A stretch of 64,000 nt of DNA from a virus, in IMG/VR virus record IMGVR_UViG_3300020473_000021, positions 69,568 through 133,567 of that record. One strand, given 5' to 3'. Shown here in pieces: positions 51,206 to 63,370 of this stretch (positions are counted from its first letter, which is position 1; every line of letters begins with the position of its first letter). Made by a program: the position numbers and the translations under genes. Below the pieces are notes generated by a model. It did no database searches. It saw only the letters and a list, made by a program, of their open reading frames with translations, and was not told the DNA's origin.

Positions 51206-54200
51206 ATGTCATTAGTAGCAAGATGGCCACTCAATGGTCATGCTAGAGACATAGTGGGTGGCTTAGATGCCACCCGAGTTTCTGGATCTGGCCTAACTTG
51301 GAATACGTCGCCTATTGGGCTAGGTGCACAATTTAATGCAAACGATGACCGCATCATCATTCCACATGACGACTATATAAACAACCGCTGTTTTGGTAAA
51401 TCAAAAGAATTTTCAGTATCGTTCTTTTATTACCCGATAAGTTATTCGGATTATGGGTGTGTCATTCAAAAAGCAAGAGCAGGTAGTTGGTCTAACAGCA
51501 CGATGGGTGTCTGGATATATAGTGGTGGAATAAGATTCATCATGGGATCTGATGTATCGGGTAATCCATCGGCTAGCTATACTGCCATAACTAAAAAACC
51601 CCCAGTCAATCAATGGGTTCATGTAACGTGTATCGCCGATAGTAAAGAGATGGGGATGTACCTAAATGGTGAATTGGTAGGTAGAGTGGATATATCCACC
51701 ATATCACACCCTAGGACGTCCAACGACGCACCCATCACCATAGGTCCAAGATACGATAATGATGGCACCTACAGTAGTCTTAGGGGCGTTATAGCAGACA
51801 TCAAGTTATATGATCACGTTTTAAGTAAACAAGAGATAATGGAAAATGGACTTGGGTTAATGTCTCATTGGCCGTTAACCAATCCACCCATTAATGGTGA
51901 GATATCTGGCGATTGTATAAACTCATCAAATGCAACGTTGTTACCGGACTACCTATATAAAGGAGGTATACCGGGTGAAATAACGTCTTACATTGAATTT
52001 ACTGGAACGTTAAATGGTGGCGTATCGTTACCTAAAGATGATTTCTCTCAGAACTCAAAGTGGGGATCTGTTAGTTTTTGGTTTAAGATAGATCAGCTAA
52101 CAAACTACAAACAATGGTTGTGGCATACCTATGTAAACCGAGATCGTGGAACCTATATCTCGGAAACAGGTGAAATAGTTGGTTTAGTTATACGTGGCGG
52201 TACTGATCCTAGTGCAGGTGAGTTTGCGACAGGTAAAACAATAAATGTTGGTGAGTGGCACCACCTAACGATGAGTTGGAATATATCCACTGGTGCAATC
52301 CATTTACATCTAGATGGTGTGTTAATACATACTGAGAATACTGGAAGTTGGACTGATGTTGAAAATGGCGATGAGACAACTATAGGTACCAGTACTGTGG
52401 GCGGTAGAACCATATTAGGTAAAGTTGCACACTTTAAAACGTTTGCTAGTCCACTTAGCTCACATCAAGTTAAGTTGTTGTATAAAAAGAGAACATCTAT
52501 GTCAATGGAGGGTGCTCTCAATATCGAGAACTTAGATGAGGGATATGATCGAATTGCCGCAAAGGGTGAATTTCTTGTTGTAGATAGTGGGTTTTATGGT
52601 GACATACCCATATACGCCTATGAGGACAATACAGACCTTTATATCGGTGGGTATAAGGTAGCTACCCTATCACGAGGGGAGAGTTATACGTTACCTACGT
52701 CGATGCAGTCAGTTGGATTATCGATAAGTGCTTTTGGCAAACCCATCAGTATCGGCGGTACCCGCAACTGCATTTCAACACGTTGGGCCGGTAAAGCATT
52801 TGGTGTATGGGTCGATAGAGATCCAGGTGAAATTGTTATATTCGCACCTTTCTCAGATGCGACTGTAGAGGTCGTTAGTACTCCGTTTGCAGATGCGACA
52901 GAGACAATCTCAACCATAACCATTCCGGCTGGAGAAAGTCATGCGGTGCCAAATGAGATACAGTACTTATATTTCATTCGATCGAATGTTGATATATGCG
53001 TTTATGCGATGGGTGTGAATTACGATAATCGACCCGTATATCCCGCATCTAAAGAGCTGTATGGTATCGCCAGTGGACACGCGGATCTCGTTTCTCTAAC
53101 TGATGGTGATGTTGAGGTATTTGGATCTGACGGTAGTTATGTCGACTATGGATTCAAAAGAAAGAATAGTGGTACCGGGAATGTAGCGGCGACTGGGGGT
53201 CTTTATACTGGGGCATCTAGTTTAATAAAAGCTACCGGGTTAGTTTGCGTACATGCACAAGCAGATAGTGACGGTGGTGAAATAACCCCGTTTATAACTA
53301 AAGACGCTATGTCAACACATTTCTTACTCCCTAGCGATTGTGACTTTGTTGCATTTGTAGGATTGGAAGATAACGTCGCAGTTAAACATCTCGATACTAA
53401 CATGATTGAACAACAATCCACCACAGCCATTTCTAATGGTGAAGGATTCCCGAGTAAGGCTAGGTTAGAAGGTGGTCTTTTAGCTGGACATTGGATTATC
53501 TGTGATCGTCCCGTGTACGCTATAATGCAACCTACAGCAACAGACGACGAAACTGTCCTTTATGGATATAATCCGGATGTAGACAACGTATATCGTGAAC
53601 ACATCGATAAGTTTAGTGAAAACGGTTTATTCCCACAGGAATACATAGCCTACTTACCATTACACTCCGATGTGGTTGATCATGGCGTAAATGGTTTATA
53701 TCACGATTCTATCAGCAAACCAGTTAAGTCAGATCGTGGATTCACGTTCGATGGGATAGATAACTACTTAATGGTCTTATCTAACCAAGAAGCTGCCGAT
53801 TTTATCGGTCAACCGGAAACTCAGTCAATCACGATAGCTATGTCGTTTAAGAGTCTTGGCTCTTTAGCAACGAGCTCTGCATCGGCTAGGTTAATAACGA
53901 GGGATGCTTCCGACTATTGGGCTGTTGGTATCGACCAGACGTCTGGGTTCCCACAACGCTTGAGGTGGTGGGATGCTTCTTCTGCATATAGTGAAGTCGG
54001 AGCAATAACTGATGGTTGGCACCGCTTGGTTATGATTAGAGATTTGAATACTAATGTCGGTAAAATGTATCTCGATGGTAACTTACTTGGTGAATTTGTC
54101 GCTAGCTCAGGACCCGGTTCAAGTAGACCGATCTTAATTGGAGCCAATACCGAACAACAAATCAATAACACCGGAGATGCTTTCTACGGTGACATCGAAG

Positions 54201-54331
54201 ATGTTCACGTTGTGGCTGGAGTTGTATCGGAACAACATGTTAAGTCTGACTATCAGAGATTCGTGAAAAGAAATCGATCTTTATCGTTTGATAGATCTAG
54301 CAAAAATGTATATCAATTAATCGAGAGGTAA
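51206..54331 (+). CDS. LamG/concanavalin-like multi-domain putative adhesin
   Basis: Three LamG-like units (WVHVT..MYLNGELV, WHHLT..LHLDGVL, WHRLV..MYLDGNL) plus a central IgGFc-binding-like segment. Confidence 0.75.
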   Translation: MSLVARWPLNGHARDIVGGLDATRVSGSGLTWNTSPIGLGAQFNANDDRIIIPHDDYINNRCFGKSKEFSVSFFYYPISYSDYGCVIQKARAGSWSNSTMGVWIYSGGIRFIMGSDVSGNPSASYTAITKKPPVNQWVHVTCIADSKEMGMYLNGELVGRVDISTISHPRTSNDAPITIGPRYDNDGTYSSLRGVIADIKLYDHVLSKQEIMENGLGLMSHWPLTNPPINGEISGDCINSSNATLLPDYLYKGGIPGEITSYIEFTGTLNGGVSLPKDDFSQNSKWGSVSFWFKIDQLTNYKQWLWHTYVNRDRGTYISETGEIVGLVIRGGTDPSAGEFATGKTINVGEWHHLTMSWNISTGAIHLHLDGVLIHTENTGSWTDVENGDETTIGTSTVGGRTILGKVAHFKTFASPLSSHQVKLLYKKRTSMSMEGALNIENLDEGYDRIAAKGEFLVVDSGFYGDIPIYAYEDNTDLYIGGYKVATLSRGESYTLPTSMQSVGLSISAFGKPISIGGTRNCISTRWAGKAFGVWVDRDPGEIVIFAPFSDATVEVVSTPFADATETISTITIPAGESHAVPNEIQYLYFIRSNVDICVYAMGVNYDNRPVYPASKELYGIASGHADLVSLTDGDVEVFGSDGSYVDYGFKRKNSGTGNVAATGGLYTGASSLIKATGLVCVHAQADSDGGEITPFITKDAMSTHFLLPSDCDFVAFVGLEDNVAVKHLDTNMIEQQSTTAISNGEGFPSKARLEGGLLAGHWIICDRPVYAIMQPTATDDETVLYGYNPDVDNVYREHIDKFSENGLFPQEYIAYLPLHSDVVDHGVNGLYHDSISKPVKSDRGFTFDGIDNYLMVLSNQEAADFIGQPETQSITIAMSFKSLGSLATSSASARLITRDASDYWAVGIDQTSGFPQRLRWWDASSAYSEVGAITDGWHRLVMIRDLNTNVGKMYLDGNLLGEFVASSGPGSSRPILIGANTEQQINNTGDAFYGDIEDVHVVAGVVSEQHVKSDYQRFVKRNRSLSFDRSSKNVYQLIER

Positions 54332-54335
54332 TAAG

Positions 54336-54755
54336 ATGGCTAATCTAAAAGATACCACGGTCAATGGTGAGTTGCGCGTGACGCGTGGTGTTAAAATGCT
54401 AGGGCCTCTCTTGAGGTTTTTCAAGAGTCCGACGTATGGTACTGGTGAGCCAATAGAATATGTTAAGGTCGTCGATACTGACGTCAATATCGGTGCCAAT
54501 ACGAATATCCAATATAACTTAGGCGATTACGTTAGTGATGTTTCTAAGTTTGATATTCGAGGGGCTCGTATTGAAGTTACCGCCTTGGATACCGAAACGG
54601 GGTCTCCTACAAATGGCGACTACGTAAACTCAGAAGCAATGATCACTAAAGCTATCTCTGGTGGTAATGCTGTTAAACTACATAACTACTCTAACGCAAC
54701 TGCTCAATGTAAGGTATATATCGCACTTCCCATTAAAGCAAGGGCTAATGCATGA
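54336..54755 (+). CDS. small fibre-associated protein
   Basis: 139-aa beta-rich ORF coupled (ATGA) to the next gene. Confidence 0.65.
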   Translation: MANLKDTTVNGELRVTRGVKMLGPLLRFFKSPTYGTGEPIEYVKVVDTDVNIGANTNIQYNLGDYVSDVSKFDIRGARIEVTALDTETGSPTNGDYVNSEAMITKAISGGNAVKLHNYSNATAQCKVYIALPIKARANA

Positions 54756-57700
54756 TAGTAAAACCGAATAAGGTACCGGGACACTACCCGGTACCCATCG
54801 ACTTGAGATTAAAAGGCGAGTCGTTAGTAGACACTGTTGCATTGTCTAAAAACGCTGCGCCTCCGGCTAACTCTAAATACATCGGGTATGATGAGTTAAC
54901 GCCACCTAATCCATTTCTTGCTGTTACTCAAGATGGTAAAGGTAATGTTGTATATGACGGTGGTTTTCCTAAGTTCTACAATACTAGATCTTTACCTGCT
55001 GGAACACCTTTCAGTGAGTTGAATGCACAACATAAATTCCTTTGGAATGCTGTAAACTTTATTGCCAATAAGCAAAAGGTTGCATCTGGTAATAAGGAAG
55101 TGTTGTTAATTGGCGATCGAACTGCCGATAATTACTGGGTGAAGTCGACCATCGGTAATGGTTTTAAGACCACATTCACCAACGTCATTACGACGATGGG
55201 TTACAATCTAACCATTAAGGATGCAAACGATTACGGTGGTATCATCGATGCGACCTTAAGTGAGTTGGAACAATACTGTTGCGTTATCTTCATGTCGTCT
55301 TGGTATACAGACCAGCCAAAGATAACACAAGCATGTATCAATAACTTCCTGACATATCGTCAAAACGGTAGTGGTTTGTTTTTCATCACTGACCACGGTA
55401 ACGTCATTAATGATTTTGATACAGCAGTTAACGGTAGTTATAGTGGTTTCTTTAGAACTGCCAATGCCATTACGGTTAACTTTGGTGCTTGGTTCTCTGG
55501 GAACTACGATAGAACGAGTGTAAATGTTGGTTACCTACGAAACAACTATGGCGATCACCCACTTTATAGTGGTTTGTCTGATGCTGAAAACATTTCTGCG
55601 GGTGGTAGTGAGTCTGAGGTTGTTTTGGCGAGTAATGACACATTCTCGGGTGATGCGATACCTGACATAAACATAAACTCTAGTGGCGTCAATACAGTCA
55701 ACGTTTTATCAGTTACAAAAGATGGTGAGGTTGTCACTGAGCGATATCTATACACCATTGGTAGTAATCCGCTTGTTAGCGTTAAAACTCAAGGTACGAG
55801 AATTCCATTCGGTGGAACTATTGAGACCTATAAAAAGTTTGCTGACTTTGACTTCATCAATAACTTTCCTGAACTGGGTACGCTAGTGGGTGAAGTTTAC
55901 ATCGATGGCGTTTATCTGGGTACGGTGAATATAGACGGTAATAGATCCACCTACAAGTGGATAACCGATCCATTGACACCGATTATATCTGGTAGCGATC
56001 TACGGCTTGAAATCATACAACCATATCGCTATACGTTAAATTGGACCATCAATCAGTTGAGTACTGGTTTTGGCGATGCTAGAAGTAAATGGCGGTTGTT
56101 TGATACTGATTTCATAAAAGGTAGGGGTTTGGGTTTAATACGCAACATAAACTCTCACTTTGCCGAATCAATCAAACCGACATATCGTCCGGATAGCGCG
56201 AGTGTACTTGATGATTTGGAAGTGTATGAAAGTGGTGAGGTTGACTTTGGATCAATCGAGGTTTACTTAGTTGGTGATTTTCAGGAGATATTCAACAACA
56301 GACTATTCAGTCCAACCGAGAAAGTCACTGTGGTGAACAGAAACACTCGGGAGGTATATCTACCTACTGATAATGGTTGGGTTTTATCCGATAAGTCCGC
56401 TGGTGAACTTTTGGGCGTGGGAAGGACATTGATTGATAAGTACAATCGTTCCACTTACGTAACAACAGATCAACCTAGAGTTAACGTTACTTATCCAGAA
56501 CAGACACCGCTTTACGATGACCAAAAGAAATATGGTTACTGTAGCATCGTCCAATCTCCGTATCTAACTTGGTGGGTTCCAATTGAAGTATTGACCGCCA
56601 AATGGATCTGGGATAGAACTACAGCAGGTAGTACAGCTCCTGTAAATGAATCTGTACATTTAAGAAAGTGGTTCAATAGCCCCTATACTGGAACGGCAAC
56701 TTTAAAAGTTGGTTGTGATGATGCTGTAAACGGTCTGTGGGTAAATGGTGAGCTGGTTAAATCTGGTAGTATAAACCATCAACTGGGTGAAACGCACACC
56801 ATTAACGTAAGGCAAGGCATGAATTTGATTCATGCAGAATGTTACAACAGTGGTGGACCTGCTGGTTTCTTAGCCTACATCTTAAGTAGAGATGGTGACT
56901 TACTTACTAAGACCGATTCTAGTTGGTTGAAGTACTCGATCCCCAATAAGGACATTGGTGCCATTCGCGTTACTAACGATGACGATATATCGATTCCTTA
57001 CGATGAAAATATGGTTTTATCGCCAGATGACGTCATTGAGTATGAAGTCGATTTTCGTTCCAATGGACCACCTGGTGGGTGTCTGGTATCTATACACTAT
57101 TACAGGGATTCTGTTGGTGGTACACACCGTGGATTAGATATCTATAGTGGTAGCGGTAGTTCATCGTTAGCGGCTCACCTAATACATAATTGGGAAAGTT
57201 CTGGTGGCGATCAGGCCATTCGCATAAATACCGATGTGGGTGGTAATGGTTTTGTAGATGTCTGGGATAATCAATGGCACAATATTAAAGTTGTCTACGA
57301 TGGTTCTAGATTGGAAAGTGGTTTGTCGATGTATGTCGACGGAGTAAAACAACCACTACAGACTGCTCCAGACAACCCAAGAGCGGGAAACCAGTCATTG
57401 TTGAATGCTGGTGTTCTAAGTGCTAAAGGGGCACCCGTTAGAGTTGGGGGTAGAACTAATGTGGACGACACACCTTACTATCCATTAAATACGGGCGACT
57501 ATAAGAACTTTAAGATAAAGCGCAATGGTGTAGTGATTGGTTACTACCCGATGCATGAGTCTTATAATGGTCGTTTCTTCGACTATGGTGTATATAGCGT
57601 CCATTCAGATGTTGCTCCACCAACGACCACATCATGGACGACTAGCTGGAATACGTCCAGATCTACCGAATGGACAACAAGTTGGACGAGTAATAAAACA

Positions 57701-58666
57701 ACGAGTTGGACGACGTCGGTGGATACAAGTCGTGGTACATCACACACGACAAATTGGACAAGTAGCTATACCACAAGTTGGGGAACTTCAAGAGGAACAA
57801 GTCGTAGTACTACGATAAGTACATCTTGGAGTACATCAAGGACAACCACTTGGGATAGTAGTCGTACGACAAGTTATACTACTAGCTGGACTGGTAGTCG
57901 GACTACGAGTCGGGTGGAATCTAAAACCACTAGTTGGACAACCAGTTGGTCGGGTAGTCGCAGTACTAGTCGAACTGAGTCTAGGACGACATCGTGGACT
58001 ACGTCATGGAGTGCCAGCAGAAGTACCAGTCGAACCACTAGTAAGAGTTACTCTCGTTCTACTTCGAAAGGTACTTCATGGACGACGAGTTGGACTGGTA
58101 GTCGTGGTACTAGTCGTAGTACTAGTAAGAGTACTTCTAAATTGACGAGTCGATCTACCTTTATCGGTCCTATCGACGTTTGTATTTCTTTAGATACTAA
58201 ATTAATGTTAGCGTCTGGGGAAACAATGGATGCGAGACACGTTAAAGTTGGTGATGTCCTTAAGGGTGTTGATATCGAAGGTATGATCGATGAATCAGAC
58301 CCACGTTGGGAAAGTTGGTCTACTCGATATTTAGAAAACCCTAGGATAAAAGACGTAACTGTAAAACACGTTAGATTTGGGTCATTTAGGGCTATCTATC
58401 TCGTTAACAACAAGTTAGCTATAACCAAGCAACATAAGGTACTAGCTAAACACAACGGACGGTGGTCTTGGTGGGATATACGAGATATTGAACTTGGCGA
58501 TATCATGTTGGATCAAAACCTAGGTGAGGTAGAGGTAGAAAAATTAGACTATTTAGATGGTGACGTAGAAACCGTAACTATTGATGTTGAAGAGTCTGAT
58601 ACTTACTTTGCTGGTGGGTTGTTGGTTCACAACATACCCGGTGGCGGAAGCCAAGTTAAGAGATAA
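54752..58666 (+). CDS. multi-domain putative virion appendage protein: carbohydrate-binding/LamG-like domains, 44 TTSX repeats and C-terminal Hint domain
   Basis: Jelly-roll-like AKWIW...GCDD..WVNG...GPAGF; LamG-like WHNIKVVYDG..MYVDG; Thr/Ser/Trp/Arg tetrapeptide tract; CISLDT...VKVGD...TYFAGGLLVHN. Confidence 0.8.
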   Translation: MIVKPNKVPGHYPVPIDLRLKGESLVDTVALSKNAAPPANSKYIGYDELTPPNPFLAVTQDGKGNVVYDGGFPKFYNTRSLPAGTPFSELNAQHKFLWNAVNFIANKQKVASGNKEVLLIGDRTADNYWVKSTIGNGFKTTFTNVITTMGYNLTIKDANDYGGIIDATLSELEQYCCVIFMSSWYTDQPKITQACINNFLTYRQNGSGLFFITDHGNVINDFDTAVNGSYSGFFRTANAITVNFGAWFSGNYDRTSVNVGYLRNNYGDHPLYSGLSDAENISAGGSESEVVLASNDTFSGDAIPDININSSGVNTVNVLSVTKDGEVVTERYLYTIGSNPLVSVKTQGTRIPFGGTIETYKKFADFDFINNFPELGTLVGEVYIDGVYLGTVNIDGNRSTYKWITDPLTPIISGSDLRLEIIQPYRYTLNWTINQLSTGFGDARSKWRLFDTDFIKGRGLGLIRNINSHFAESIKPTYRPDSASVLDDLEVYESGEVDFGSIEVYLVGDFQEIFNNRLFSPTEKVTVVNRNTREVYLPTDNGWVLSDKSAGELLGVGRTLIDKYNRSTYVTTDQPRVNVTYPEQTPLYDDQKKYGYCSIVQSPYLTWWVPIEVLTAKWIWDRTTAGSTAPVNESVHLRKWFNSPYTGTATLKVGCDDAVNGLWVNGELVKSGSINHQLGETHTINVRQGMNLIHAECYNSGGPAGFLAYILSRDGDLLTKTDSSWLKYSIPNKDIGAIRVTNDDDISIPYDENMVLSPDDVIEYEVDFRSNGPPGGCLVSIHYYRDSVGGTHRGLDIYSGSGSSSLAAHLIHNWESSGGDQAIRINTDVGGNGFVDVWDNQWHNIKVVYDGSRLESGLSMYVDGVKQPLQTAPDNPRAGNQSLLNAGVLSAKGAPVRVGGRTNVDDTPYYPLNTGDYKNFKIKRNGVVIGYYPMHESYNGRFFDYGVYSVHSDVAPPTTTSWTTSWNTSRSTEWTTSWTSNKTTSWTTSVDTSRGTSHTTNWTSSYTTSWGTSRGTSRSTTISTSWSTSRTTTWDSSRTTSYTTSWTGSRTTSRVESKTTSWTTSWSGSRSTSRTESRTTSWTTSWSASRSTSRTTSKSYSRSTSKGTSWTTSWTGSRGTSRSTSKSTSKLTSRSTFIGPIDVCISLDTKLMLASGETMDARHVKVGDVLKGVDIEGMIDESDPRWESWSTRYLENPRIKDVTVKHVRFGSFRAIYLVNNKLAITKQHKVLAKHNGRWSWWDIRDIELGDIMLDQNLGEVEVEKLDYLDGDVETVTIDVEESDTYFAGGLLVHNIPGGGSQVKR
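57626..58153 (+). repeat. 44 tandem tetrapeptides (T/S-T-S-X), outbound tract
   Basis: Direct parse of the translation from TTSW TTSW NTSR to STSK LTSR, with no register break. Confidence 0.92.
58181..58633 (+). other. Hint (intein-like/BIL-type) autoprocessing domain, 151 aa, no endonuclease
   Basis: Cys1 (CISLDTKL), block B-like ITKQH, block F-like TIDVEESDTYF, terminal His-Asn; +1 residue is Ile. Confidence 0.88.
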
Positions 58667-58677
58667 CGGGAGCTACT

Positions 58678-59241
58678 ATGGCAACAACGAGTTGGACGAC
58701 GTCTTGGAGTACGTCTAAAGGTACGTCGTGGAATACAAGCGTTGGAAAAAGTAGGGGGACGAGTCGTTCCACGTCGAAGGGGACGTCTTGGAGTTCTAAC
58801 GTAACAACCTCTTGGACTACTCGATGGACAGCATCTCGCGGTACTAGCGTGACGACGTCGTGGTCGACGTCTTGGAACACTTCGGTTAGTTATAGTCGCT
58901 CGACATCTAGGTCGACCGATAAAACAACTAGTTGGAGTACCAACGTTGCATATAATCGTACGACAAGCTATACGACGACTTGGTCTAATAGTCGAACGAC
59001 AACATGGAACACTAGTATAAGTACCACGATCACTACCTCATGGACAACTAGTTGGAATACGTCTAAAACTACTTCGGTGGCGAAGAGTAAGACAACGAAC
59101 TATAGTACATCGTGGAATACTAGCTGGACTACATCTAAGACGACATCGGTTAGTGGTTCTAGGTTGACTTCAAGGACGACGACGTTTCAGACGTCTAAAT
59201 CGACATCGACTACATTAGGTATAAAGCAACTAACGCTGTGA
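58678..59241 (+). CDS. protein composed almost entirely of TTSX repeats (putative partner strand)
   Basis: GGGAG SD; MA + 44 tetrapeptide units + TLGIKQLTL. Confidence 0.8.
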   Translation: MATTSWTTSWSTSKGTSWNTSVGKSRGTSRSTSKGTSWSSNVTTSWTTRWTASRGTSVTTSWSTSWNTSVSYSRSTSRSTDKTTSWSTNVAYNRTTSYTTTWSNSRTTTWNTSISTTITTSWTTSWNTSKTTSVAKSKTTNYSTSWNTSWTTSKTTSVSGSRLTSRTTTFQTSKSTSTTLGIKQLTL

Positions 59242-59247
59242 TATAGT

Positions 59248-59278
59248 AGGGAGGGCGAGTGCCCTCCCTCTATGATGT
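59248..59278 (+). terminator. hairpin after the 187-aa gene
   Basis: AGGGAGGGC-GAGT-GCCCTCCCT followed by TATGATGT. Confidence 0.6.
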
Positions 59279-59329
59279 CTTTAATCCTATGGCCAATGTA
59301 TACCTATATTAACGTTAATAGGGTGTTTT

Positions 59330-62041
59330 ATGAGTGAATTAAATTTCAAATACCCTCTAGATCTAACTGGTGTTGATTCTGTCAACCGGGTCTTAGGGGA
59401 AGGACACTCAATAGGCGAAGGTTTTAATCGACTAATCGTTCCTATTGAAGGTGCTTTTTATACCGACGGGTTGATTGTTCGAGATACCGTGAATGGCGGT
59501 GAACTTGTTCCTAAAGATCAATACCTACCTATTTTATTCTACCAAGAACCTTCCGAGCGAAGTGGTAAGGAAGTATGTTGTGCTATCGCTATCGTTGATC
59601 GTAGCGTTAGTACAGAAGTTGAGATTGAGTACCAAGCGGTAGGTGATGTTTACTCTAACATCACTAGTTTGATACTTGATAAAGTAACCGACATTAACCT
59701 CGATGACTATAATCTCATCTGGGGTGATCTACTGGGAAACCTAGATGTTTTTCCCGGTGATGGCGATCTTAGAGAGTTGGGCGCAATATATGGCTTTGAG
59801 TTCGTAGCTAAAGCACTCAATGATTTAAGGGATGCGATCTTCTTTGGTGATATCGATGATCACGATCGATTAAAGCAAGTGATAGAAAATAAATATCAGT
59901 TAGCTTACAACAAAGCTGTCAACATCAATGATGAGGCTGAAGCCCATTATGCTCGCACTGACGATCCTCATGATGTTACTAAACATCAGATTGAGTTAGG
60001 TAAAGTTGACAATCATCCAACTGCATCGGTTGAAGATGATGTTCAGGGTACGAATAATCAGAAATATAGTACGCCTGCTGGTATTCGTGATTCTATTCGC
60101 ATCAACGCTATAGAGCCTTTGAATTCCCACATCAACAATACTGACGATCCTCATGATGTAACGCAAACGCAAATAGGTTTGTCTCGGTTGCATAACTGGT
60201 CGACTCCAGATAAAGCAACGGCTGAACTGGGTGAGTCTACCGAACACTACATGACGCCATTGTCGTTATCTCAAGCGATTGCGGCTCAACTTGGTGATGC
60301 GATAGAAGAACATGTAGCAAATAAGAGCAACCCACACCAAGTGACAAAAGCGCAAGTGGGACTATCACGTTTGGGTAACTATCCACCCGCTAGTGAAGCT
60401 GAAGCTGTCGAGGGTGTCCGGTATGATCGGTTAATAACTGTTAAGAATGCGGGCGATGCAATAAACGCTAGCGCTAAACCTCTTCTAGAGGAGCACGTTA
60501 ACGATTTCAATAACCCACATGAGGTTACTGCTGCTCAAGTAGGGTTGGGTAATGTGGATGATGTATCGTTTGCTCAAATGCAAAACCGATATATTGAGAA
60601 AGGGAAAGCATCGACCGTTACTGTTGTGGGACCAACTCAAGCTCTGCAAGGTGAAACTGTAGAATGGGTTATCACCAATTACGATATCTTTACCAATTAT
60701 GATATCTCCGGTGATTTCGGTGACCTTACAGTTAATGGTGATACCATCAGTAAAACTATTGATTCGTCAACACCAACGGGCGATCGGACGCTGTCTATTC
60801 GTGTGGGTAATAATACTCGTGAATTACCAATTAAGATCATTGGTCGTGGTGTTAATAAACCAAGTATCACTAGTCCGAATGATGATGCTCGCGGCATCTC
60901 ACTTAACACGACGATGACGAGTAGTTCATTTACAACAACACCTTCTGGTATCGATAGTCATGAGTCTAGTCAATGGCAACTATCTAAAGTAGTTGACTTT
61001 AGTAGTATTGCTGTCAACGAAACTGTGGGTGGTAGTGAACGTACAGCTTGGAGTACACCTACACTCGATAGAAACTCTGTGTATTATGCACGTGTTCGAT
61101 ATAAGGGTGCTGGATCTGGTTGGAGTCCTTGGTCTGATGTAATCATGTTTAAGACTGCCGATATCACAACGACTAGTTTCTCCACTAGTCGCACCACCGA
61201 TAAGGCAACTAACTGGAATAGTAGTTACACTACTCAATGGCAGAGCTCTCGGGCAACGAGTCGTACGACTAGTCGTCAGACTGTTGTGGGTAATGTGTAT
61301 ACTACTCAATATCAGACTAACTTCACTACAAGTTGGACTGGTAGTCGCAACACTAGTGTACCGCAATCTAAACAAACATCTAGAACGGTAAGTCGTACAA
61401 CGAGTTGGACGACAACTTACTCAGTTAGTCGTAGTACTACGAAAACTACGAGTAGGTCAACTTCGGTGGCTACCACTAGAATTACATCGGTAACCACGTC
61501 AAGAACTACGAGTAAGACTACGAGTAAGACTACTAACTACACCACTTCGTACATGTACGATGATGGTCGAAGCCCCAGTAGTTGTTTGCAGGGTTACTAC
61601 GATGGTCCTTACTATAGATGTATGGAACCTGGTGTACCTAAGCGGACATATTACACTACGCAGAAATCTACTAGTTACACCACTTCTTGGACTACTAGTT
61701 GGAGTACGAATAGATCAACATCCATTAGCGTCAATAAGACAACCTCTTGGAGTTATAGTGCCAACACCAGTGTGCAGACGACAGAAACGTTATCTCGCAA
61801 TACTAGTTGGACTACGACATATACAACCAATTGGTCTGTCGATAGATCAACAGATGTTAATTATAGTCGCAGCACCAGTAGAACGACCGAACAAATATTG
61901 GACAACAGTGATGTTCGTACAACATCATGGACCACCAATTATACTTCGTCGTGGACAAACTCTAGAACAACAGAGTCAGCCACAAATCGCACTACTGCTA
62001 AGACGACAACGTTCCAAACTTCACGCCCAACCGAAGTTTAA
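59330..62041 (+). CDS. tail fibre-like protein with FN3 domain and C-terminal TTSX hairpin
   Basis: phiKZ-type fibre N-terminus (YPLDLTG..N), four (D/N)PHxVT..Q(V/I)xL repeats, FN3-like YYARVRY..GWSPWS, then 32+32 tetrapeptides around a Cys-Cys loop. Confidence 0.8.
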   Translation: MSELNFKYPLDLTGVDSVNRVLGEGHSIGEGFNRLIVPIEGAFYTDGLIVRDTVNGGELVPKDQYLPILFYQEPSERSGKEVCCAIAIVDRSVSTEVEIEYQAVGDVYSNITSLILDKVTDINLDDYNLIWGDLLGNLDVFPGDGDLRELGAIYGFEFVAKALNDLRDAIFFGDIDDHDRLKQVIENKYQLAYNKAVNINDEAEAHYARTDDPHDVTKHQIELGKVDNHPTASVEDDVQGTNNQKYSTPAGIRDSIRINAIEPLNSHINNTDDPHDVTQTQIGLSRLHNWSTPDKATAELGESTEHYMTPLSLSQAIAAQLGDAIEEHVANKSNPHQVTKAQVGLSRLGNYPPASEAEAVEGVRYDRLITVKNAGDAINASAKPLLEEHVNDFNNPHEVTAAQVGLGNVDDVSFAQMQNRYIEKGKASTVTVVGPTQALQGETVEWVITNYDIFTNYDISGDFGDLTVNGDTISKTIDSSTPTGDRTLSIRVGNNTRELPIKIIGRGVNKPSITSPNDDARGISLNTTMTSSSFTTTPSGIDSHESSQWQLSKVVDFSSIAVNETVGGSERTAWSTPTLDRNSVYYARVRYKGAGSGWSPWSDVIMFKTADITTTSFSTSRTTDKATNWNSSYTTQWQSSRATSRTTSRQTVVGNVYTTQYQTNFTTSWTGSRNTSVPQSKQTSRTVSRTTSWTTTYSVSRSTTKTTSRSTSVATTRITSVTTSRTTSKTTSKTTNYTTSYMYDDGRSPSSCLQGYYDGPYYRCMEPGVPKRTYYTTQKSTSYTTSWTTSWSTNRSTSISVNKTTSWSYSANTSVQTTETLSRNTSWTTTYTTNWSVDRSTDVNYSRSTSRTTEQILDNSDVRTTSWTTNYTSSWTNSRTTESATNRTTAKTTTFQTSRPTEV
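61169..62026 (+). repeat. two 32-unit TTSX tracts flanking a 30-aa loop (61553-61642)
   Basis: Direct parse: TTSF...TTSY / MYDDGRSPSSCLQGYYDGPYYRCMEPGVPK / RTYY...QTSR. Confidence 0.9.
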
Positions 62042-62044
62042 TAT

Positions 62045-62090
62045 ACGGCATATGTGGGAGGGGTCAAACCCTCCCACTATTATGTCTGTC
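62045..62090. terminator. hairpin between convergent genes
   Basis: GTGGGAGGG-GTCAAA-CCCTCCCAC with TATG-type flanks on both strands. Confidence 0.7.
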
Positions 62091-62095
62091 TTACC

Positions 62096-63370
62096 TTACA
62101 GGAGGCTGTCAAGAAGACCAGGTTCCGCGTTCTCCATCGAACCCCCACCACTATAGTAATCCATGGTAAAAGTCCTTAGAACGATATACAGAAGCAATCC
62201 TGTTCGTACTGCTGCTAACAATGAACTGTTGTTTGACTTAACAGACTTCTCAACAACTCCCAATGCTAACTCACGTATCTTAAGTAGCGATGGATTCGTC
62301 GAACGAGACGACATGTAAAGCGAACGTAGTCGAGATAACAATAAGGCTAAGTTCAAGTTTCGATTAAACTCTTTCTTATTTGCATTGATAAAGTCAAACG
62401 CATGTAGTACAGTTTCCTCTACAAGCTCCTCAACGCGTCTGTCACCACGATAACCGTAGTTGTCTGACATATACTCCAATGCCGACACTAAATGTCTCTC
62501 AGGCATCGTGTGCATGCCATCACCGATGATCGATACTAAGTCATCCCGGATAAAAGAACGCTTCTCAGAAATCACCGAGTGGATGTATCGCTTATACTGA
62601 CTATGTTTACGGATCAAGTGTCTAACGTGGATATCGCCATCAATATCAATCGTAGATGACTTCGTGTTGACACGACTTCCAGATTGTGCTACCTCAACGA
62701 ATACCCGATACATCTTTTTAACGACTTCACGGATACGACCCTGCGTATCAGACAATAAATACTGGATACGCTCATCATCGTTAAACTTAGCAATCGCATC
62801 TCTATGGATATTGCCTGCTGAGATAATATCTTGAGCACGTGCTTCAATCAATTTGGCCCAACTACCATAGCGCTTCAGTGAGAACTTATAGTTAAGCTCT
62901 GCATACACTGCTTCCAATATACGCCGATCAGGCTCGTACTTGAAGTAGTGCGCCATCAGTGAAGATAAGAAACGATAATGTAAGATCTTAAGTGCCGCCA
63001 TCATACCTGATTCTTTTTGCGAGGCACTGATGTCTTTTGAATTGAAAAGTGCATGTAGAACCCAAGCGACCGATAGATTCAATACATCACTAATAACCTT
63101 GTGCTCCGGATTCACACTCGGTAAAGCATGGATCTCGTTTTTAAGGATCACGTCATCTGTTTGGATAACTTCATCAAACCACTCATGGCGATCTGATGTG
63201 TGGAAGCGTAGCGGTGGTGATCCAAGTAGGACACCACCTAAGAACTCAATATGGTCTTCTGATCGATTCACGAAGTCACGCTCGTACTGCATGATGCGCT
63301 TAACGAACCGACTGTCTATCTTTAAGTGACCACACTCAGACTTAAAGACATCTTTAATACTGTTTGCCAT
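62096..63370 (-). CDS. conserved phiKZ-like protein, possibly virion-associated
   Basis: 424-aa helical ORF with GAGG SD; function not recognised. Confidence 0.7.
   Translation of the reverse strand: MANSIKDVFKSECGHLKIDSRFVKRIMQYERDFVNRSEDHIEFLGGVLLGSPPLRFHTSDRHEWFDEVIQTDDVILKNEIHALPSVNPEHKVISDVLNLSVAWVLHALFNSKDISASQKESGMMAALKILHYRFLSSLMAHYFKYEPDRRILEAVYAELNYKFSLKRYGSWAKLIEARAQDIISAGNIHRDAIAKFNDDERIQYLLSDTQGRIREVVKKMYRVFVEVAQSGSRVNTKSSTIDIDGDIHVRHLIRKHSQYKRYIHSVISEKRSFIRDDLVSIIGDGMHTMPERHLVSALEYMSDNYGYRGDRRVEELVEETVLHAFDFINANKKEFNRNLNLALLLSRLRSLYMSSRSTNPSLLKIRELALGVVEKSVKSNNSSLLAAVRTGLLLYIVLRTFTMDYYSGGGSMENAEPGLLDSLL

Follow-up and report, generated by a model that had tools for sequence, protein, structure and literature searches.

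The locus and its two tetrapeptide tracts

The DNA analysed here, referred to below as the window, is the last 64 kb (positions 69,568 to 133,567) of the 133,567-nucleotide (nt) IMG/VR record IMGVR_UViG_3300020473_000021, a viral record that occurs in marine metagenomes and has a completeness of 48% according to CheckV. Two adjacent genes of the window, here designated A and B, each contain a long tract of tetrapeptide repeats, and the A tract is followed by a Hint domain. As argued below from the sequence, A and B probably provide the two strands of one heteromeric fibre module of a phiKZ-like marine jumbo phage. The features of the two genes are as follows (window positions):

54752-58666, + strand: gene A, an open reading frame (ORF) of 1304 amino acids (aa) comprising a virion structural N-terminal domain, middle domains, the strand-1 tract, a Hint domain and a short tail
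57626-58153, + strand: strand 1, A residues 959-1134, 44 tetrapeptides x-T-S-(W/R/K...)
58154-58180, + strand: linker of nine residues (A 1135-1143) that joins the last unit to the Hint Cys, delimited by the Hint alignment and the pairing register
58181-58633, + strand: bacterial-intein-like (BIL) Hint domain, Cys1144 to Asn1294, with Cys1, the block-B T..H and the terminal His-Asn
58634-58663, + strand: ten-residue tail following His-Asn, with Ile as first residue (no +1 nucleophile) and containing Lys
58668-58672, + strand: GGGAG Shine-Dalgarno sequence, inside the 11-nt spacer between the A stop codon and the B ATG
58678-59241, + strand: gene B, an ORF of 187 aa; strand 2 occupies residues 3-178 (nt 58684-59211) and is followed by a short C-terminal end

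The initial annotation of this DNA had described 44 in-register tetrapeptides and a Hint domain in the 1304-aa protein, with 44 more such units in the next gene. Both tracts are borne out (A 959-1134; B 3-178), and the strings of fourth residues given for them were reproduced exactly. The units are of the type T-T-S-W or x-T-S-R. By inspection, the tracts consist of about 60-70% Ser/Thr, and they contain no Cys. In the A tract the spacing between successive W/Y/F/R/K residues is 4 in 36 of 42 steps. As DNA, the units show a similarity of only 60-77%, and according to Tandem Repeats Finder neither gene contains an array, so that the repeat is maintained in the protein sequence.

Complementary pairing of the two tracts

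When the reversed A tract is laid on the B tract at offset 0, 33 of the 44 fourth-residue pairs combine R or K with W, Y, F or V, which confirms by recount the number previously claimed. Shuffling the unit order of B gave a mean of 20.0 such pairs (standard deviation 3.1), and 33 or more were reached in 3 of 100,000 shuffles. The other 48 antiparallel offsets reach a maximum of 24/38. The parallel orientation gives 18/44 at offset 0, and its best fraction is 20/25, on a short overlap at offset -19. Shuffled orders, other offsets and the parallel orientation, the controls named in the initial annotation, all fall below the antiparallel alignment at offset 0. Arg had also been said to face aromatic or aliphatic residues exclusively; indeed all 26 Arg pairs are with W, V or F and R-R pairs are absent, a situation reached in 1 of 200,000 shuffles. 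In this register the last paired residue of A, R1134, lies opposite W6 of B. The like pairs number 9, of which 3 are K-K and 6 hydrophobic-hydrophobic. Since W and R come in runs within the tracts, shuffles overstate the significance of these figures, and independent tests were therefore sought in other tracts.

Cognate tracts in the same phage

Scanning the complete record brought the number of tracts to six: A, B, two in a gene C located downstream of B (C1 and C2), and one each in genes D and E, which lie outside the window.

59330-62041, + strand: gene C, an ORF of 903 aa with a tail-fibre N-terminus and a putative single-chain form of the module
61154-61552, 61553-61636 and 61637-62038, + strand: outbound tract, Cys/Tyr-rich knob and return tract of gene C
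G000:C1:47293-50388 (outside the window), - strand: gene D, whose N-terminus resembles that of C and which further contains a tract, Gly7 and a Hint domain sharing 60% identity with the one in A
G000:C1:46838-50388 (about 19-23 kb before the window start), - strand: the D/E cassette, which includes gene E, a tract protein of 147 aa

The end of C thus consists of a tract, a 28-residue knob (two Cys, many Tyr) and a return tract, and its two tracts align antiparallel without gaps over 127 residues, with 25 complementary pairs and 1 like pair (z = 5.0). The D/E junction resembles that of A and B: the spacer is again 11 nt long, with the Shine-Dalgarno sequence TAGGAG.

We compared the six tracts by two methods. 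In the first, a gapped alignment rewarded basic-hydrophobic pairs, and 60 permutations of the large residues, restricted to the positions that such residues occupy, provided the null distribution. The three cognate antiparallel pairs, C1-C2 (z = 5.0), D-E (z = 4.9) and A-B (z = 3.4), head the set of 30 pair/orientation combinations; D-E is also high in parallel (z = 4.4). The 12 cross pairs, scored antiparallel and parallel (24 combinations), all remain below z = 3. In the second, a parameter-free score counted complementary and like pairs on every ungapped diagonal of the same 30 combinations. The top three of the 9,360 diagonals are A-B (33/9, offset -4), D-E (26/7, offset +4) and C1-C2 (25/2, offset +5), all within 5 residues of the offset anchored at the tip. 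At these offsets the first tract ends where the second begins, which is the arrangement of a hairpin. Non-cognate diagonals score best at arbitrary offsets and reach net scores of up to 17, against 24 for A-B. No match was found between A and E, nor between D and B. As the codes of A/B, D/E and C are unmatched across pairs, the residue order may serve as a partner address as well.

An ending of the pattern T-(T/S)-F-Q-T-S-(R/K), close to the C-terminus, is common to B, C and E (window 59187-59241 and 62000-62041). Located at the base of the presumed hairpin, it may be a docking or stop motif.

Tracts in other viruses

A degenerate DNA pattern of the repeat matched 72 loci in IMG/VR, and 35 ORFs in 27 of these passed a tract filter. 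On inspection, at least 14 loci encode real tract proteins. The initial annotation had proposed a search of other genomes for such tracts, and the same split layout is indeed present in two contigs unrelated to this phage, L016 and L020, each with a tract-Hint gene followed by a tract gene and with about 940-1,040 residues per strand. In these long relatives the antiparallel pairing has z = 13.7 for L016 and z = 15.1 for L020, and the parallel orientation gives z = -5.9 and z = -6.3, respectively. The L020 strands align without gaps over 895 residues (144 complementary pairs versus 7 like), and the L016 alignment has 154 complementary versus 9 like pairs with 9 gap positions. About 2,000 ungapped diagonals were scored for each contig, and in both the tip-anchored diagonal comes first (offsets -1 and -10; 150/13 and 145/12), the runner-up diagonals being 89/26 and 82/21. 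The pair types comprise R-W, K-W, F-R, F-K, Q-W and H-Y, together with G-Y on the other face: L016 and L020 have 36 and 14 H-Y pairs and 20 and 28 Q-W pairs, respectively, and L016 has 16 G-Y pairs. These extra pair types, and a spacing of the large residues of 4+6, suggest a code of more than two letters in the long relatives.

Complementarity was also found in other forms. A single chain with a Cys-rich knob (L034) shows 30 complementary pairs and no like pair, and two-gene pairs lacking a Hint domain show 24/0 (L014) and 23/0 (L053). According to the ORF coordinates, the spacers corresponding to that between A and B are longer in L016 and L020, about 40 and 75 nt. The genes flanking the L016 and L014 tracts are tail-fibre, major-head and amidase genes. 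Another IMG/VR contig (L022, 2454-6299) contains a single ORF of 1,269 aa that is nearly all tract, with W and F, few basic residues and a short non-repeat stretch near the middle; the basic-aromatic score misses its pairing rule, if any.

A scan of genome contigs with the repeat pattern gave at least 120 loci; among the matches listed none contained a real tract ORF, and they came from other reading frames of GC-rich DNA or from TWTTTW runs. With the low-complexity filter on, megablast of 54752-62041 and tblastn of B against phages gave no match. A protein homologue search with B (560 candidates) gave none at E <= 1e-3 and three meaningless ones at E <= 10. Nothing significant was found by phmmer in the PDB for B or for the Hint domain alone, and B finds only unnamed viral clusters in the ESM Atlas, with scores below 0.9. 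No loci related to the Hint domain were found in IMG/VR, and none related to an orthologue of A (P0050) in IMG/VR or the JGI metagenomes.

Co-evolution of the paired strands

The two-gene relatives allow the partner strands to be compared between viruses. L053 differs from L014 by the absence of one 4-residue unit in its small gene and of one in its large gene at the paired place, and both pairs are still gapless. L016 and L020 are 61% identical. Their strand-1 indels are +36, -2 (four times), +4, -6, +11 and +3, and the strand-2 counterparts are +36, -2, +4, -6, +10 and +4, at a distance of 0-12 residues from the paired position. One more strand-1 indel, of +44, has a counterpart of 18+18+8. 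Covariation of the two strands had been anticipated in the form of R<->W swaps; what is observed is size-matched indels at paired positions of both genes, and double swaps between L016 and L020 are absent.

The mirrored order has no apparent origin in the DNA. Inverted repeats within 57500-62100 measure only 18-33 nt, so that no inverted duplication is seen at the DNA level in this region. An inverted DNA copy was in any case rejected as the source, the reverse complement of Trp codons being Pro codons rather than codons for Arg or Lys. Tandem duplication produces parallel similarity, not antiparallel. As duplication gives parallel likeness and an inverted copy gives Pro, selection on a physical antiparallel contact is the only explanation of the data. 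Taken together, the shuffles and offsets, the top diagonals of the 9,360, the distant homologues aligned over about 900-1,000 residues and the matched indels support the register-specific antiparallel pairing, with the Hint domain at the turn, that the initial annotation had put forward.

The Hint domain

Single-sequence searches with the Hint domain of A against Pfam remain below threshold (Intein_splicing, 16.9 bits for a cut-off of 35.8). Intein_splicing is matched by 17 of 25 members of the Hint family at E <= 0.01. A profile of these 25 sequences matches, in the PDB, BIL2 (6tmm/6y75, E = 2e-14), the BIL domain of Clostridium thermocellum (2lwy, E = 3.5e-11) and also inteins. An AlphaFold2 model computed from the 25-sequence alignment has a predicted local distance difference test score (pLDDT) of 91.7. 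Foldseek finds 62 PDB matches to this model at E <= 0.001, with BIL2 on top (E = 1.8e-9, TM score 0.71/0.79), followed by 2lwy and then inteins and hedgehog (1at0). The residues at alignment columns C10, T91, H94, H159 and N160 are invariant in all four of A, D, L016 and L020, and H94 in 25 of 25; the nucleophilic Cys corresponds to Cys1144 of A. By profile and by model the domain is bacterial-intein-like, with intact catalytic residues; it lies exactly at the presumed hairpin turn.

His-Asn is followed by Ile in both A and D, by Arg in L016 and by Asn in L020. With Ile at +1, the Hint domain of A is not a splicing intein; a canonical splicing intein is ruled out by the lack of a +1 Cys, Ser or Thr and by the presence of only 10 residues before the stop codon. 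Cleavage by BIL domains takes place at either end (PMC7765530), and BIL2 transfers its N-terminal flank onto a lysine as an isopeptide (PMC8616854). For A, the sequence leads us to infer a cleavage at Val1143/Cys1144.

Among 1.84 billion representatives, 5,880 relatives of the Hint domain were found at E <= 0.001, and the following details come from the best 150. His-Asn lies within 40 residues of the C-terminus in 123 of these 150. The tails beyond it mostly have 1-11 residues and contain Lys in 118 of the 123 (at +1 in 27, at +2 in 53). A loose tract filter was passed by 26 of the 150, about 10 of which have a clear tract directly before the Hint domain, including orthologues of A (P0050) and of D (P0006). 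More generally, these sequences (P0002-P0151) make up a large family in which a viral surface or fibre protein carries a BIL-like Hint domain at its C-terminus, frequently with a run of Gly in front of it; the Gly run and the very short Lys-containing tail suggest a chemistry shared beyond the tract proteins. The same Hint type, with 40.6% identity to that of A, also terminates collagen-like and large tail proteins of Phage NCTB (L074, LT598654.1; 1224-8483), which have no tetrapeptide tract. One of these proteins is also 1304 aa long, being otherwise different.

Genomic setting and a companion gene

A PHROG search places residues 3-436 of A in phrog_11065, 'virion structural protein' (E = 3.2e-130); this domain shows 29-46% identity with phiKZ-like jumbo phage proteins of Ralstonia and Pseudomonas (80 records). 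B matches phrog_30374 (E = 3.2e-7), and C matches phrog_2163 and tail-fibre PHROGs. Directly upstream of A, positions 51206-54331 encode a protein of 1041 aa with three Laminin_G_3 stretches (E = 5.8e-46), which fits a cluster of glycan-binding fibre genes. The Laminin_G_3-rich neighbour, the phrog_11065 domain and the tail-fibre PHROGs on C together point to a tail-fibre or baseplate module.

The locus is also represented in other sequencing runs. In three RNA-library runs from a single study, contigs match parts of the A tract, of the Hint domain and of B with an identity of at least 99%. An independent marine DNA run shows six substitutions within 57600-59300: two at codon 1135, directly after the last A unit, and one resulting in N93S in B, and none of the six at the fourth position of a unit.

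A gene of family phrog_26179 accompanies the tracts:

G000:C1:50456-51295 (outside the window), - strand: phrog_26179 gene of this phage, single copy, beside D/E and not beside A/B
L016:9898-10806, L014:7136-7939 and L076-L080: phrog_26179 genes of relatives

It adjoins tract genes in 8 of 8 records (own genome, L014, L016, L020, L022, L034, L037/L049 and L053) and occurs in none of 14 control genomes. The protein has about 280-300 aa, with invariant LxG.N, K.HP (K-x-H-P) and SE motifs, and none of its 256 database relatives is named. Weak pointers suggest a KpsC-type or polysialyl-type glycosyltransferase: KpsC in the PDB at E = 1.1, the Pfam families A-2_8-polyST (0.021) and Capsule_synth (0.14), each in 1 of 8 members, and an ESM Atlas cluster (at 0.95) with Capsule_synth in 58% of its members. 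A search for PF05159 gave nothing in 5 of 5 records.

Proposed architecture

Our interpretation starts from the sequence of the strands, each a run of x-T-S-Z units with Z either an aromatic or aliphatic residue (W, Y, F, V, I) or a basic one (R, K). The order of Z classes along A is aperiodic, and B shows the reverse order with the classes swapped. Such a mirrored, class-swapped order implies that the strands fit only antiparallel, and only in one register. One face of the duplex would then carry Trp over Arg or Lys, and the other small residues (Ser, Thr, Gly, Asn). Strand 1, by its C-terminal end, would meet the N-terminus of strand 2 at the far tip; at the base, the start of strand 1, beside the globular body of A, would meet the C-terminal end of B. 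B would be made separately from its own ribosome-binding site, 11 nt past the A stop. The Hint domain, at the turn, would most likely form a thioester at Val1143-Cys1144 and remove itself through cleavage at both ends, leaving the linker 1135-1143 as the processed C-terminus of strand 1 at the tip. The product would be a thin projection from a tail-fibre or baseplate protein, each strand contributing 176 residues.

A two-stranded antiparallel beta-ribbon fits the even spacing of large residues, the beta-prone composition and the G-Y pairs. In such a ribbon, one face would present Trp/Arg pairs in alternation with Thr pairs, and small polar residues would make up the other. An extended strand measures about 3.3 Å per residue, and 176 residues would thus span roughly 58 nm. 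The cross-strand cation-pi contacts invoked in the initial annotation may help to hold the ribbon together; Q-W, H-Y and G-Y pairs are common in the relatives as well. What the data show is the complementarity of the sequences, with its register, conservation and co-evolution, and the fold and motifs of the Hint domain; we infer the beta-ribbon geometry, the cleavage, the presence in the virion and an adhesive or receptor-reaching role. The hairpins may bundle, by analogy with the needle of T4 gp37.

Several observations weigh against this interpretation. A-B is the weakest of the three cognate pairs of the phage, with its z of 3.4 and its 9 like pairs, and D-E also scores high in parallel (z = 4.4 gapped, 23/7 ungapped). 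No R<->W double swap occurs among the 643 positions mapped consistently through both strands between L016 and L020. The RNA-library contigs cover parts of A and B (58825-59246 for B), which is weak evidence for expression given that DNA carry-over is possible. An AlphaFold2 prediction of the single-chain hairpin of C, made without an alignment, has a pLDDT of 37.8, so that strand geometry and oligomeric state are argued here from the logic of the sequence only. A complex prediction for A 951-1143 with B gave a score of 0.00 and partner pLDDT below 50, the controls likewise not being folded, and carries no weight for or against the interpretation.

There are four other explanations, which we consider improbable to different degrees. 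In tracts rich in W and R with runs such as WW and RR, some alignment would always look complementary, and the pairing might be an artefact of chance or periodicity. The runs do inflate the scores, as illustrated by the parallel 20/25 at offset -19, the non-cognate net score of 17 versus 24 and the fold of A on itself (below). However, the best diagonal is the a priori tip-anchored one in all three pairs of this phage and in L016 and L020, the long homologues reach z = 14-15 with the parallel orientation below its own null, and indels are matched between partner genes; chance is hardly credible and the least probable of the alternatives. Pairing within one chain, or between like chains as in a trimeric shaft, with B as a separate small fibre protein or assembly factor, is somewhat less improbable. 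Phage fibres are commonly trimers, and the A tract folded on itself gives 15 complementary and 4 like among 20 pairs, which also counts against a dedicated A-B partnership. Yet B pairs poorly with itself (at best 8/3 in 12 pairs), the net score of A-B is 24 over 44 pairs against 11 over 20 for A-A, the gene pairs of L016 and L020 match end to end, and unit deletions are mirrored between genes. We regard self-pairing as unlikely; homo-oligomers of A-B hairpins forming a thicker shaft would fit our interpretation.

Alternatively, A and B might be joined into one polypeptide by frameshift, read-through or protein splicing, the Hint domain being a true intein. Single-chain forms do exist (C, L034), the spacer is just 11 nt, and the Hint domain retains the terminal His-Asn needed for C-terminal cleavage. 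Against this, the succession of stop codon, Shine-Dalgarno sequence and ATG seen between A and B is conserved at D/E with other letters, the spacers of L016 and L020 are about 40 and 75 nt, the +1 residues are Ile, Ile, Arg and Asn, and L014 and L053 are split without any Hint domain. This makes a joined product very improbable. Only slightly less so are tracts that act as unstructured, mucin-like Ser/Thr linkers, mainly as a glycosylation substrate for the phrog_26179 protein, with no defined duplex. Their Ser/Thr content of about 60-70%, the constant company of the K-x-H-P gene with its weak glycosyltransferase pointers and the low AlphaFold2 confidence for the C hairpin agree with such a role, but disorder would select neither a mirrored W/R order nor matched indels in two genes; sugars on the small-residue face could coexist with a duplex, and PF05159 gave no match in 5 of 5 records.

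The two-gene antiparallel duplex can be extended to a more speculative scheme, which as a whole we consider doubtful, in which the W/R order is a code for partner and register, an amine placed by the zipper caps the tip covalently and the phrog_26179 protein glycosylates the module. One virion would then build several non-crossing fibres (A/B, D/E, C). The amine near the Hint thioester would be the tail Lys or the N-terminal part of the partner strand, the tip would be closed or capped covalently, as by BIL2 with lysine, and the phrog_26179 protein would decorate the Ser/Thr face with sugars.

If the proposed architecture is correct, mutual recognition of two polypeptides, one residue at a time along 44 to about 250 units and by a side-chain code of two letters, would be a natural protein analogue of strand complementarity, and could supply protein design with a programmable and orthogonal building block that is also a nanometre ruler. 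It would represent a new fibre type whose length is set by the repeat number in two genes bound to change together. It would further explain a widespread class of unnamed low-complexity genes in marine viral metagenomes, and give a concrete role to the C-terminal Hint domains common on viral surface proteins.

Comparison with known systems

We propose the family 'antiparallel tetrapeptide zipper of viral fibres', in which A/B, C, D/E, L016, L020, L034, L014 and L053 all show the complementary pairing. No name or description of such tracts was found in Pfam, PHROG annotation, the PDB, the ESM Atlas or the open-access literature; the initial statement that no such system has been described agrees with the open-access papers and preprints searched. 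Published work on terminase inteins (PMC3556154, PMC5259590) has no bearing on them. Membership in two further families was considered and rejected. TSP_1/WSXWS does not apply, since none of A, B and C matches a Pfam family at E <= 0.01 and the tracts have a spacing of 4 and no Cys, nor does peptidase S74, A having no Pfam match.

Tryptophan zippers and cross-strand Trp-Arg/Lys hairpins are designed peptides of 12-16 residues with 2-4 pairs. The tracts would share with them an antiparallel two-stranded beta structure with large side chains facing across strands on one face. In contrast to these designs, A/B is natural, encoded by two genes, and has 44 pairs (relatives up to about 150) whose aperiodic order would fix register and partner. 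The Trp-Arg ladders of thrombospondin type-1 repeats (TSR) and of the cytokine-receptor motif WSXWS belong to small disulfide-bonded domains in which W is spaced by 3 and R by 2. They resemble the tracts in the stacking of alternating Trp and Arg from neighbouring antiparallel strands and in being Ser/Thr-rich, and differ in that the tracts have a spacing of 4, no Cys and a probable length of tens of nanometres.

Among phage fibres, the tip of the T4 long tail fibre, gp37, is a single-chain homotrimer with a His-Fe core and an out-and-back needle. As proposed here, a fibre chain runs to the tip, which is the distal end, and returns antiparallel; there is no sequence relation, and gp37 has neither a tetrapeptide code nor a two-gene split or a Hint domain. 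Endosialidases and T5 pb1 carry a self-cleaving C-terminal intramolecular chaperone, the Ser-Lys peptidase S74. Like these chaperones, the Hint domain is a C-terminal fibre domain expected to cut itself off after assembly, yet it has another fold, and its chemistry would be that of a Cys thioester. BIL2, from the Tetrahymena BUBL locus (6tmm/6y75), and 2lwy share with it Cys1, T..H, His-Asn and the absence of a +1 nucleophile; unlike them, it is C-terminal on a virion protein, with a short tail, at the presumed turn of a two-gene hairpin. The nearest concepts thus share a contact type or a topology with the tract zipper, and not its two-gene, register-coded, repeat-built design, and we rate it as a new kind of protein architecture.

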